Assembly: GCA_036867785.1 (NCBI GenBank)
Contig: CP145419.1
Coordinates: 1 to 64,000 of the forward strand
Direction: 5' to 3'
DNA length: 64,000 bases
DNA from: Plasmodiophora brassicae
Taxonomy: Eukaryota
This document shows, piece by piece, positions 38,960-42,342 of this stretch. Positions within the stretch are counted from its first letter, which is position 1; every line of letters starts with the position of its first letter. Made by a program: the position numbers and the translations under genes. The notes beneath the pieces were generated by a model. That model was not told where the DNA came from and searched no databases. It saw only the letters and a program-made list of their open reading frames with translations.

Positions 38960-41900
38960 TCAGTCACAATCGGATTCTGAGGTCGACATTGTCATTGCTC
39001 CTTGGTTGAACTTGTCCACAGCCACATCCCGCCGATAACGCATCTTGCTTGACCTTTTGACACTGGACTGGATGGAGGTATTAATACCGGATGGCGATGT
39101 CGACGTCGGGATCTGACGTCCATGAAGTGGCAGTAGTATCGGCGAAGGTGGTTGAGGTGGCATTGCTGGATACGCCGGCAGTTGGGACGGATGCGGGGTC
39201 GTGACATGCACAGGAACGAACCGGATTTGTATGGTCGGTCGTGTACAGACGTAGACTACAACGACGACAGCTACGATTACAAGACTGGTGGTAGCAAGTA
39301 CCAGGAACAACGGGCTGGTAAGAACCGAAAGGCCGGCATCGGTAGACGACCGGGCTGAAATTGACGACGGATAGGAGACGCTGGGAACAGGGGTTGGGAT
39401 CAGTGTCGAGGTTGCCCGAGCCGATGTCGTGAAGGCGCCGGTATTGCCAATATTCAACGTCGTCGGGGTCATGTGTCGCGTTTGGTACCCCAAGGCAGTC
39501 GACGTCTGCGTCGACGGGATCCTGAATTTTCGAGTACCTGTTCCTGAAAGTCCCCTCTGCGAAGGCGGCGTTGGCTGCCTAGTTCTAGCCGTAGTTGACA
39601 ATCGCTGAGGGTGTATCGGGCAGGTCGCGGCAGGTGCGCTTACTGTTGACCCATACACGAACATCTGCTGTAACCGGTGTGGAATACAGGTCTGTTGACG
39701 GAGCGCAACCGGCCCCGAGTGATTTGATGAGCTTTCCAGGCACAGCCCGCTGTCATATTGGATCAGGTTGATGATCGGGACATCATCCTGATCAGCACCG
39801 ACTACTTTGATGCGAAACCATTGACTTCCAGATGGGAACCCGACTAAGTCGCACCTGTAAGACTGGAGTTGCAGGCCGATTGTTGACGCAGCTCGAGGCA
39901 CATCGATACACATTGAGAAATCAGGCCCCAGCTGCAGAATATAGAAGTCCGTTCCCCATTGGCGAATGTAGACCTGCTGCATGGTTCCGCCAGTTAATGG
40001 GACACTCTCGACTGTTGTCGTCGCCAAATACGACAGGCACGGGGCGAATCCAATCGGACCCGACGGGACACTTGTCCGTGTCAAGCACGTTGATGACGAC
40101 AGGTTTCCCGACGTCAAAGTTCGCAACGGGGCTCGCTTGCCGGGGCGTATCGACGCTAGATACAGATTAAATTCGGTGACGTTCGATATCCGCAATGAAG
40201 GAATCCGCTGGAATGCGGTAGCCATTTCGGTGTTCTGCATGAACGAGGACCAGATACGACCGGCAGTCCGTTGGTTTTCCAAGGATAGCAGTAGATGGCC
40301 TTGATGTGAGCCGACAACGTCAGGACTGGCCCAGGTGCCTGGCCAGTTCGGGTTGATAGCGTCCGATAAGCCGTACGATACGCAGGAAACGTTGCAGTAC
40401 GTCTTGTACATGTACCGCAATGCGTCCAGCGAAATCGTCGGTGTGAACATGAATGATCCAGCGGGACCCTCTGGTGTGACGGTGTTATCGTCGTTCAATG
40501 CAGGAATGGCACCGCGTGTGGTGTAACCGTAGTAGACGCCATTGGGTCCAGACGTCGACGCCGAACCGTTCCCAGGGCCATCACAGTCGGATATTCCCCA
40601 GAAATGTTCAGAGTGCCATGCATACGACGCCTTCTTGTCCATGGAATATCGCTGCTGTGTTAGAGTCGCAATGCGACTATTCTCAAAGTAGTTGACTGTG
40701 CCGGAAAGGTCAGCGACCCGGCGGAAATCGAAATAGAGTTCAGATGATTGATGGGTAAACAGCGGAGAGCTCTCAATGAACGAATATCCATACTGTGCCG
40801 CCGCCGTATAGGTCGATGTGTATGCCGACCAGAACGTCGGCGGTATGGGGTGCGTTTGCGATCCAATTGCCATGATGTACAGCAATTTCGCTTCGGACAA
40901 TCCGTGGTATTCGTACGCGTCCATTCCCGTGTCCGGATACCATTGATACCCGAGACGATGGTCAGGTTCCTGAAAGAATGTCCAGTTGACAGCATTGAAT
41001 AGGGCCGTTGCATTGCCAGATATGGCGGCCTCATTCGGCAGTGTGAAGAACTGCTTGACGTACAGAACCCCCGACATCAAGACAGCGGTCACATATGGCG
41101 ACAATTCGCAGTTCTCTGCACGGTACCCTGTGTCTGGGTCCAGCCGGTGGTAGAAGAACCCATTGTACCTGAGCATGGCCATCAGTTCTGCAACGCGGCA
41201 ATTACGTATTAAGAGTACCCGGAGACGTTGGAAGCCGCTGGCGATTGCGTCCCCTTCCGTAACGTCATCAGAGTTGTCAGCACACGATCAGCCGCGTCGC
41301 GCCTCGATATGTACCCACGGTCAGCCCCGATGGCCATAGCCGTTAGTCCGAAACCAGTGGCCATGACGTCGGCATTCGCCCAAGGTTCGTTTCGATCGCG
41401 AACGAGGCCGGTCCGCGGGTGCGCCTGGAACCAAAAGTAGTCGAATGCAGTTCGCTGCAGATAGTCCAGGAATGCGTCATCGTCTTCCAGCACGTTCGCT
41501 CGAGCCGCAGCTGTGCACGTCGGGCCAATCCAATTTCCGGTCGCTATCCGATAGTCGTAAGACTTGTCCAGAGCAACGCTGCTGTCGTAGTAATTCAGCC
41601 CGTAACGACCCGATACGGTTCCGATCTGCTGGAATGGGGCACCCGGGGCATTCGATAATCGCCGCATGACGGTAAACAAAGTGTGCTGAACGGTACTAGG
41701 GGAGGTCCAGTGCAAGACGACGGCTTGATCGGAGGCGTAGCAGACGAGCCCGCCTGCAGTCGTATATGATGACGACGGGACCGTGCTGATGACAGGGTTT
41801 CCGACCTGGAACAACTGTGCCAGAGAAGAGTTCGAACACGGAGCAGTGACAATAGAGTCATTCACCAATGCTTGAAACTGCAGTTGCGCCCCCACCGCGT

Positions 41901-42342
41901 TGATTGACACGATGGGATATGTTCCATTTGACGTCCACATCGCGATTGTAAAGACGAACATCTGGTCGGCGCTCGACGAGGAGCAGGTTTCTAACACAAG
42001 ACGTCGTCCGTTCACGCAAAGCCCGGATGAACTTAACATCTGCCATGCTTGACCATCCGCCGTCGATGTTATCGTGAACAGTTGATTTGCATAGCCCAAG
42101 CGGGCGCCTGTAGACGTCACTGTAGCACCGCAGTACCCTAAGCGGACAGTGGCCCCCATGTTCCCTGTATCGCTCGTTCCAATGCACTTTCCAGGCAAGC
42201 CTGGGTGCTCGGGTCCGATCAGGGACCGTATCGCGATCGGCACGCCCGTGAATGTGCTGAAAGCTGAATCCGGCGCCGCGAACCTTGCCAAACATACGAG
42301 TATTGACGTAAGAGCTAGAGGCAGCGTATGCCATGATGACAT
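38960..42342 (-). CDS. Predicted type-I membrane protein: signal peptide, ricin-B-like lectin, FN3-like, GH144-like (beta-1,2-glucanase) domain, ricin-B-like, S/T stalk, TM, Pro-rich tail; about 1110 aa, one intron (41218-41169)
   Basis: LDYLQRTAFDYFW..HPRTGLVRDR..ATGFGLTA..GYNGFFYH..SEAKLLYIMAIGS.THP..PLFTHQ..NYFENSRIAT..WGIS..DDNTVTP..LENQRT. A 50-nt GT-AG intron joins ORFs 41209-42342 and 38960-41182 in frame. Confidence 0.85.

Follow-up and report, generated by a model that had tools for sequence, protein, structure and literature searches.

A predicted membrane-anchored GH144 protein of Plasmodiophora brassicae with valine at the candidate general-base position

We analysed a stretch of 64,000 nucleotides from Plasmodiophora brassicae (positions 1 to 64,000 of the forward strand of contig CP145419.1, assembly GCA_036867785.1; hereafter the window) and followed up one of its genes, PBRA_008132, on the minus strand at 38960-42342. 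Its product is predicted to be a surface protein in which a domain of glycoside hydrolase family GH144 is preceded by an FN3-like domain and flanked on both sides by lectin-like domains. A sequence-only reading of the locus had proposed a bacterial-type GH144 beta-1,2-glucanase domain in a receptor-like eukaryotic surface protein that had lost two acidic residues. That proposal holds in part: family, origin, spliced gene and predicted topology stand, the catalytic loss narrows to one site, and the receptor reading falls away. What appears to be new here is a eukaryotic, intron-bearing, membrane-anchored GH144 protein without its candidate catalytic base, beside a paralog in which that residue is intact. 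On balance we favour, by a modest measure, the view that PBRA_008132 is a hydrolytically impaired, glycan-binding surface paralog.

The gene consists of two minus-strand open reading frames (ORFs) that lie head to tail in different frames, at 41209-42342 (377 amino acids, aa) and 38960-41182 (740 aa). A scripted scan for GT..AG introns of 25-300 nt that restore a single ORF returned 24 candidates, among which the 50-nt intron at 41169-41218 is the only one that costs no homologous residues; splicing there gives a product of 1110 aa. The resulting junction (..SGY/NGFFYH.., with the slash at the splice) is colinear with AGYKGFYYH in the bacterial enzyme XcSGL (8xul) and with IGYNGFFYH in the paralog. 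The public model CEP00820.1 / PBRA_008132 (885 aa) spans the junction and matches residues 226-1110 of the spliced product with 100% identity over all 885 residues. Both ORFs are therefore one spliced gene, and the single transcript assumed in the sequence-only reading is supported. The parts of the gene are as follows.

38960..42342, minus strand: whole gene PBRA_008132, two exons and one intron, 1110-aa product, stop codon at 38960-38962
41219..42342, minus strand: exon 1, codons 1-374 plus 2 nt of codon 375
41169..41218, minus strand: intron, 50-nt GT..AG, splitting the GH144 domain within the conserved GY/NGFFYH motif

The intron load is thus one intron of 50 nt in 3.3 kb; P. brassicae genes have four introns of 60 bp on average (PMC4471660). 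The public PBRA_008132 model begins at an internal Met, residue 226 of the 1110-aa reading. Upstream of it the stop-to-stop frame opens at 42354, and M1 sits 4 codons past the in-frame stop. Within the part that the public model misses, residues 135-189 are 67% identical to the paralog model P0282. Because the upstream frame is open and this segment matches the paralog model, the 1110-aa reading looks better than the shorter public model. Missing from the public model is the segment 41669-42342 (minus strand), which encodes the N-terminus that resembles a signal peptide, the first lectin-like domain and a portion of the FN3-like domain. The public models of the paralog also look short at the N-terminus; P0282 begins at the equivalent of residue 135. 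The 90% cluster of the window protein contains named P. brassicae entries, including CEP00820.1 PBRA_008132, and public annotation describes the gene product as hypothetical or as a 'glycoamylase-like' protein.

The core domain can be firmly assigned to GH144 by sequence and by modelled structure. Pfam family PF10091 matches at E 9.9e-49. A sequence search of the Protein Data Bank (PDB) found XcSGL (8xul, E 3.6e-47), CpSGL (5gzh, 1.3e-9) and also BDI_3064, and its matches include no GH162, GH189 or GH192-194 chains. An AlphaFold2 (AF2) model of residues 1-337 of the second ORF, built from a 70-row alignment, reaches predicted local distance difference test (pLDDT) values mostly of 80-97; it covers 337 of the ~430 GH144 residues, the first ~90 being encoded in exon 1. 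Searched with this model, Foldseek returned GH144 structures at all of ranks 1-9 (8xul with E 6e-26 and a target-normalised template-modelling (TM) score of 0.68), followed by 8xuj (E 1.8e-10), 8wy1 (2e-8), 8xuk (3.6e-7) and 6imw (1.7e-5). Entries of GH192, GH189, GH194 and GH162 make up the weaker ranks; no solved structure of GH193 is among the entries listed. Membership of GH162, GH189 or GH192-194 was ruled out, as all their Foldseek matches stand behind the nine GH144 rows. The family named in the sequence-only reading is thereby upheld, and the structure prediction it had asked for yields an (alpha/alpha)6-barrel closest to GH144 structures. Nakajima et al. (2025; PMC12102758) treat XcSGL and CpSGL as GH144 and define GH192-194 as separate families. 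Section 2.1 of that paper describes GH144, like most families of its clan, as bacterial; the one exception found mostly in eukaryotes is GH162.

Around this core, the protein is organised in the following order from its N-terminus.

42274..42342, minus strand: signal-peptide-like N-terminus, residues 1-23, with the hydrophobic core LPLALTSILVCLA
41788..42255, minus strand: N-terminal ricin-type beta-trefoil-like domain (putative), residues ~30-185, with Q-x-F at 87, 127 and 176
41488..41748, minus strand: FN3-like domain, residues 199-285, between the N-terminal lectin-like domain and GH144 and contiguous with GH144
40148..41487, minus strand: GH144 (PF10091) (alpha/alpha)6-type domain, residues 286-715, intron included
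39608..40135, minus strand: C-terminal ricin-type beta-trefoil-like domain (putative), residues ~720-895
39311..39595, minus strand: Ser/Thr/Pro-rich stalk, residues 900-994
39245..39310, minus strand: single predicted transmembrane helix LFLVLATTSLVIVAVVVVVYVC, residues 995-1016, peak 19-residue hydropathy 3.03
38963..39244, minus strand: predicted cytosolic tail, residues 1017-1110 (94 residues), Pro-rich and free of recognised domains

The FN3-like domain had no place in the architecture of the sequence-only reading. The Pfam fn3 profile does not match the window protein itself, residues 199-285 included; evidence for the domain comes from bacterial relatives. In BLASTP, exon 1 aligns unbroken through FN3 and the start of GH144 with the bacterial proteins P0131 (41% identity over 181 aa, E 2e-34) and P0124 (E 4e-30), and the aligned segments of both are called fn3 by Pfam. 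The FN3 segment alone matches P0129, P0142, L006 and P0276 (E 2e-4 to 4e-3 in a 391-sequence set), in each of which it lies immediately upstream of the glycoside hydrolase domain. NCBIfam has no family for either ORF.

The two lectin-like domains are fainter. For the N-terminal one, Pfam Ricin_B scores E 1.7e-4 and 22.2 bits, below the curated cut-off of 29; for the C-terminal one it scores E 3.7e-3 and 17.9 bits, again below the cut-off of 29. The same region of the paralog (P0003) matches Ricin_B at E 1.5e-3 and RicinB_lectin_2 at E 6.9e-3, and the C-terminal domain is 54-56% identical between the two proteins, with all Cys conserved and the motifs RQW, QWF and QMF. A profile made from these two sequences and searched against the whole PDB found only 1knl (E 0.0031) and 3wmy (E 0.021), which we take to carry ricin-type carbohydrate-binding modules. 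Ricin-type look-alikes from the Atlas (0.90 for the C domain, 0.89 for the N domain) serve as leads only. Folding was of little help: the single-sequence fold of exon 1 (377 aa) has a mean pLDDT of 33.7 and is uninformative on the N-terminal lectin-like and FN3-like domains, and in a fold of residues 1-540 of the second ORF from the 70-row alignment the C-terminal lectin-like domain (residues 338-540) stays below pLDDT 50. A homolog search with the two-sequence alignment of the C domain, limited to proteins of 110-356 aa, produced 1707 candidates and none at E <= 0.01. Compared with each other by BLASTP, the N- and C-terminal domains align at E 0.021 over 46 residues, which gives no clear duplication. 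Within the 391-sequence set, the ricin-like domains match only the paralog, and the region of stalk, transmembrane helix and tail matches nothing. Lectin-like flanks, as the sequence-only reading had them, are thus present in a weak form, with both scores under the Pfam threshold and both folds lacking confidence, and we regard the assignment of both to the ricin-type, CBM13-like lectins of Pfam PF00652/PF14200 as probable.

The membrane-proximal features came out much as first described. Residues 900-1005 consist of 15% S, 22% T and 9% P, and the tail has 15% Pro over residues 1030-1110; composition and hydropathy agree with a stalk, one transmembrane helix and a Pro-rich tail. At the other end, residues 7-21 are hydrophobic (hydropathy 2.36 over 13 residues) and by this measurement would fit the proposed signal peptide. 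Helix and hydrophobic N-terminus support a type-I topology, in which PBRA_008132 would be a membrane-anchored glycoprotein with its ectodomain presumably exposed at the surface. The description 'receptor-like' fits this topology and does not extend to signalling, as the tail gives no Pfam match even at E 5. Nor does BLASTP find a match at E <= 0.01 between this tail and the paralog, whose tail has only ~30 residues. A receptor with a signalling domain was dropped, since Pfam finds no domain in the tail.

The relatives of the GH144 domain point to bacteria. A word-indexed search of 5.8 billion proteins (407-1295 aa) gave 206 matches at E <= 0.001, and among the best 120 of these 206 only the cluster of the window protein and the two clusters of the paralog exceed 39% identity. 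When 1.84 billion representatives were searched with a filter only, 1910 hits came back, the best E being 4.5e-61 after the two P. brassicae clusters; among the matches listed, none outside the P. brassicae clusters exceeds 44% identity. Proteins of 30-406 aa, the range of split or fragmentary relatives, returned 33 hits, all at or below 40% identity and, where named, with bacterial names. When bacterial and archaeal genomes were searched, 603 of the 612 matched stretches encode relatives, spread over many phyla at 33-39% identity. A scan of 26 long top hits brought out bacterial features, namely a type-9 secretion sorting tail in five of them and, in others, CBM30, an autotransporter repeat or a weakly matching dockerin. 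Bacterial origin of the domain is therefore supported, and the broad spread of eukaryotic orthologs that would have spoken against it was not seen in the sequences searched.

The two P. brassicae proteins form a fully supported pair in both of our trees (100/100 in the careful tree). This pair falls on the side where Verrucomicrobiota, Bacteroidota and multidomain proteins from metagenomes abound (100/100 for the split in the careful tree, 96 in the quick tree). Its immediate sister differs between the trees and long branches are involved, so no donor can be named. The pair thus groups with bacterial relatives, as the sequence-only reading expected of a phylogeny; the trees are unrooted, and the direction of transfer is taken from taxon distribution and closeness to XcSGL. 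The window protein matches XcSGL (E 3.6e-47) much better than it matches CpSGL (E 1.3e-9), and CpSGL-type GH144 enzymes are far more distant from XcSGL than the window protein is; it would therefore lie within bacterial GH144 diversity. Because its only close relative found is the P. brassicae paralog, transfer from bacteria is the best reading of the origin of the domain. As exon 1 aligns unbroken over both domains in bacterial proteins, FN3 would have arrived together with GH144, and the predicted acquired unit is the FN3-GH144 module, not GH144 alone. The intron, which lies within the transferred domain, would then have arisen after the transfer.

We next compared the active site with those of the characterised enzymes, for which the 8xul chain index plus 14 gives the published numbering (the E239Q site, F286 and Y367 agree) and the 5gzh chain index equals it (chain residue 211 is Glu). 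The relevant codons are these.

41090..41092, minus strand: Val401, candidate general-base position (CpSGL E142, XcSGL chain residue 157)
40892..40894, minus strand: Glu467, general acid, kept (XcSGL E239, CpSGL E211); Glu in 366 of 367 homologs
40757..40759, minus strand: Phe512, clan-defining, kept (XcSGL F286); Phe in 364 of 370 homologs
40523..40525, minus strand: Tyr590, clan-defining, kept (XcSGL Y367); Tyr in 361 of 365 homologs
40304..40309, minus strand: Ser662-His663, replacing the I/L/V-D/N pair (XcSGL I453-D454) under subsite -1

At the position of CpSGL E142, where an acidic residue is expected, the window protein has Val. The same position is Asp in all 119 homologs of a first search and Asp or Glu in 348 of 352 homologs of a larger set, the paralog included; the other four have Q, N, S and G. 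Val401 is also found in a second named P. brassicae entry, SPQ99420.1. Section 3.3 of PMC12102758 calls CpSGL E142 the 'most plausible candidate' for the general base of GH144 and describes the reaction route as unresolved. In the same source, mutation of E142 drastically lowers the activity of CpSGL, and acid-to-amide mutants at the equivalent site of EeSGL1 and PgSGL3 have <0.1% activity left (sections 2.7 and 3.3). The second altered site is more permissive. Ser662 stands where all 119 homologs have I, L or V, and His663 where 87 of the 119 have D and 32 have N; Asn also occurs there as GLNQA in PDB 5z06, an entry titled beta-1,2-glucanase. The CpSGL residue at this site would be D400, as judged from alignment positions, and the D400 mutant is described as retaining sufficient activity (PMC12102758). 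Both motif changes noted in the sequence-only reading are real, with V in place of D in ELSPYVTA and H in place of D/N in GSHQG. Its loss of two acidic positions thus holds as an observation, and only Val401 falls at a catalytically critical position. Of the two sites, the Val401 position is critical, since it aligns with CpSGL E142, and the His663 position probably is not, because Asn is natural there (32/119, 5z06) and the D400 mutant is active.

The paralog, PBRA_005259 (CEO96655.1; longer models SPQ95321.1, P0282 and P0003), is 55-60% identical to the window protein and has the same order of parts: a partial N-terminal lectin-like domain, FN3, GH144, C-terminal lectin-like domain, stalk and transmembrane helix. 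It reads ELSPIDTA and GIDQG, with every catalytic position intact, and is probably an active membrane-tethered beta-1,2-glucanase. Because this second copy has the same architecture and intact catalytic residues, the history would be duplication followed by divergence of one copy. The copy in the window evolves faster. Of 80 columns conserved in at least 90% of 86 bacterial rows, the paralog keeps 68 and the window copy 60; besides the active-site changes, the latter has about ten highly conserved positions altered, including those that turn WGLTACDGP into WGISDCDGP. Counted against ten bacterial outgroups, which are not independent of each other, unique changes number 47-58 in the window copy and 14-27 in the paralog (p 0.02 to 5e-7). 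Maximum-likelihood (ML) branch lengths after the split are 0.70 versus 0.12 in the quick tree (89 rows) and 0.66 versus 0.15 in the careful tree (56 rows).

Taken together, these data suggest the following course of events. An FN3-GH144 module, related to endo-beta-1,2-glucanases such as XcSGL, would have come from bacteria and then gained an intron and, as eukaryotic parts, an N-terminus like that of a secreted protein (signal-peptide-like), a pair of ricin-type lectin-like domains, a stalk of mucin-like type, a transmembrane helix and a tail. The gene would then have duplicated, PBRA_005259 keeping every catalytic residue. The window copy has retained the fold, Glu as its general acid and the two aromatic residues that contact sugar (Phe and Tyr), with Val replacing the acid at the candidate base. 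On these grounds we infer that its hydrolytic activity is slight or absent and that it may keep a cleft shaped for beta-1,2-glucan and bind beta-1,2-glucan-like chains as a lectin- or adhesin-type ectodomain, to which the lectin-like domains would add avidity or a second specificity. PMC12102758 describes beta-1,2-glucans as made by bacteria and as playing a part in symbiosis, pathogenesis and osmoregulation. Because they are bacterial products, contact with soil or root bacteria could, speculatively, be the natural context.

Several observations weigh against the view of PBRA_008132 as an impaired, glycan-binding paralog. Both lectin-like domains are below the Pfam cut-offs and neither is folded with confidence. 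The GH144 general base is only the most plausible candidate, so loss of the Asp may not abolish catalysis, and His663 and Ser662 could supply another route for water or base. With ten further conserved positions changed, the ligand could differ from beta-1,2-glucan. Relaxed selection, too, would be compatible with the low GC content at third codon positions (GC3) of 0.61, taken together with a location in the subtelomere and the faster rate. Finally, the direction of transfer depends on taxon distribution and an unrooted tree, and the P. brassicae paralog is the only close relative found, other plasmodiophorid genomes not having been searched directly.

Some of these points lead to distinct alternatives. 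That PBRA_008132 still works as a glycoside hydrolase, its base relocated or its specificity changed and its remodelled pocket cutting a different glycan or in a different mode, is a real if minor possibility. The changes Ile to Ser and Asp to His under subsite -1 would then open a water path or give a new base. E467, F512 and Y590 are kept, the changes cluster in conserved motifs and are not randomly placed, and XcSGL I453, described as hindering water access (PMC12102758 section 3.3), is Ser in the window protein. The GH144 mechanism is, moreover, unsettled, and in GH162 the base sits elsewhere, at a position that is hydrophobic in GH144 (same section). Against an active enzyme stand the near-universal acidic residue at the Val401 position (348/352) and the finding that mutating this residue abolishes activity in all three clan enzymes tested (PMC12102758 sections 2.7 and 3.3). 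A decaying, functionless subtelomeric duplicate, drifting after the loss of catalysis, seems quite improbable to us. It would account for the lost catalytic residue, for the position ~39 kb from the telomere beside satellite and retroelements, for a GC3 that resembles the gypsy pol ORF (0.63) and differs from the four neighbours (0.75-0.83), and for a rate higher than the paralog's, about two-fold by unique changes and four- to six-fold by ML branch length. It is hard to reconcile with 1110 uninterrupted codons and an intact GT-AG intron, with 60 of the 80 highly conserved columns kept, with the Cys pattern and motifs that the C-terminal domain shares with the paralog, or with the identical sequence in named entries from two assemblies, bar the last 4 residues of a truncated model.

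Two further alternatives concern the tail and the origin. A signalling receptor, in which ligand binding by the ectodomain is relayed to the cytosol through the Pro-rich tail, would suit the type-I topology and the 94-residue length of that tail. We consider it very unlikely, given a tail without a Pfam match at E <= 5 and without a BLASTP match in the short tail of the paralog. Vertical inheritance of an ancient eukaryotic gene, or bacterial contamination, we find barely credible. The unrooted tree can be rooted on the plasmodiophorid stem, and other plasmodiophorid genomes were not searched directly; against vertical descent, only the two P. brassicae paralogs exceed 44% identity among the matches listed, shorter proteins reach at most 40%, and the window protein lies within bacterial GH144 diversity. 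Contamination was ruled out by the intron, the telomere on the same stretch, and the flanking retroelements and eukaryotic-type genes. We thus return to the impaired, glycan-binding paralog as the favoured reading. A bolder version, in which one bacterial gene gave rise to a membrane-tethered pair at the parasite surface, an active enzyme and a dead-enzyme lectin for bacterial beta-1,2-glucans, is tentative and on the whole rather unlikely.

Among known systems, XcSGL (XCC2207 of Xanthomonas campestris pv. campestris, 8XUL) is the best solved relative, and its E239, F286 and Y367 are all matched in the window protein. This soluble bacterial enzyme carries Asp at chain residue 157, which is Val in the window protein, and Ile-Asp at 439-440, which is Ser-His there; the lectin-like domains, stalk, transmembrane helix, tail and intron are additions of the window protein. 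CpSGL of Chitinophaga pinensis (5GZH/5GZK), the founding GH144 member, shares family and fold, and its E211 aligns with E467; it is only ~20% identical to the window protein, and its E142 aligns with Val401. The paralog PBRA_005259 is alike in the order of its parts and differs in its intact ELSPIDTA and GIDQG, its slower rate and its short, unrelated tail. The bacterial FN3-GH144 proteins (P0131, and P0124 with a type-9 secretion sorting tail) have FN3 directly upstream of GH144, 36-41% identity and a place in the same tree subgroup; they are secretion substrates without ricin-like domains, stalk or transmembrane helix. TfSGL, a fungal endo-beta-1,2-glucanase of GH162 (6IMU/6IMW), belongs to the same barrel fold class at much greater distance (Foldseek E 1.7e-5, TM score 0.36-0.38, 10% identity), and GH162 has His where the window protein has Phe (PMC12102758 section 3.1).

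The literature searches returned nothing that connects GH144 with Plasmodiophora or mentions either PBRA_008132 or PBRA_005259, with supplementary gene tables only partly visible, and nothing relevant on GH144 and eukaryotic horizontal transfer or on Plasmodiophora and glucoamylase. Both gene identifiers are absent from those supplementary files of PMC4471660 that were examined. The closest parallel in working principle is found in a different fold and family. GH18 chitinase-like lectins keep the hydrolase fold and cleft, have lost the catalytic carboxylate and have an active paralog in the same genome; for the window protein, binding is proposed only.

The locus matters on several counts. A GH144 domain has apparently become fixed in a eukaryote, with an intron, a predicted membrane anchor and two copies. 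The surface proteins of P. brassicae are almost unstudied. Side by side, the active-type paralog and the Val variant provide a natural experiment on the general base of GH144, which is unsettled. Were the window copy to bind without cutting, it would be a natural probe for beta-1,2-glucan recognition and an example of a transferred enzyme turned lectin in a major crop parasite. Should the bolder version of a surface-bound pair be true, the window protein would be the first eukaryotic beta-1,2-glucan recognition protein, the glucans recognised could be the cyclic and periplasmic glucans of rhizosphere bacteria, and a soil-borne plant parasite would be linked to glucans that plant-associated bacteria use in host interaction.

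PBRA_008132 lies ~39 kb from the telomere. The telomere repeat (CCCTAAAA)n occupies window positions 7-373; TTTTAGGG is the telomere repeat reported for P. brassicae in PMC6823432. Directly after it, a 169-bp satellite in ~70 copies (95% matches) fills 11.8 kb at 380-12193, and sub-arrays of shorter period occur at 8351-8804 and 12063-12325. Retroelement ORFs follow at 15-24 kb, so that the order inward is telomere, satellite, reverse-transcriptase fragment, gypsy pol ORF and then PBRA_008132. The reverse-transcriptase fragment is a separate piece at 15127-17223 (plus strand). The gypsy-type pol ORF at 21338-24505 (plus strand) is uninterrupted over 1056 aa and has reverse transcriptase, RNase H, integrase, SH3 and chromodomain. 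The sequence-only reading had called PBRA_008132 the first clearly intact gene inward of subtelomeric debris; telomere, satellite and retroelements make up such debris, although this pol ORF within it is itself uninterrupted.

Further inward lie an EF-G-family gene, an ATP-grasp/SET ORF and two hybrid histidine kinases. The GC3 of PBRA_008132, 0.61 overall, ranges from 0.56 to 0.67 across every domain; the four neighbouring ORFs with the higher values span 46454-61826. The last part of the window, at 62001-64000, has a GC content of up to 0.725, a strongly negative AT skew and overlapping long ORFs on both strands, and gives no Pfam match. An unusual pairing occurs at 52551-53906 (plus strand), where an ATP-grasp / D-Ala-D-Ala-ligase C-terminal domain and a SET domain share one ORF. 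The hybrid histidine kinase ORFs at 57616-59535 and 59619-61826 (both plus strand) stand in tandem, with 84 nt between them and PAS, HisKA, HATPase_c and receiver domains, and look as though a bacterial-style sensor had been duplicated in tandem within a eukaryote.

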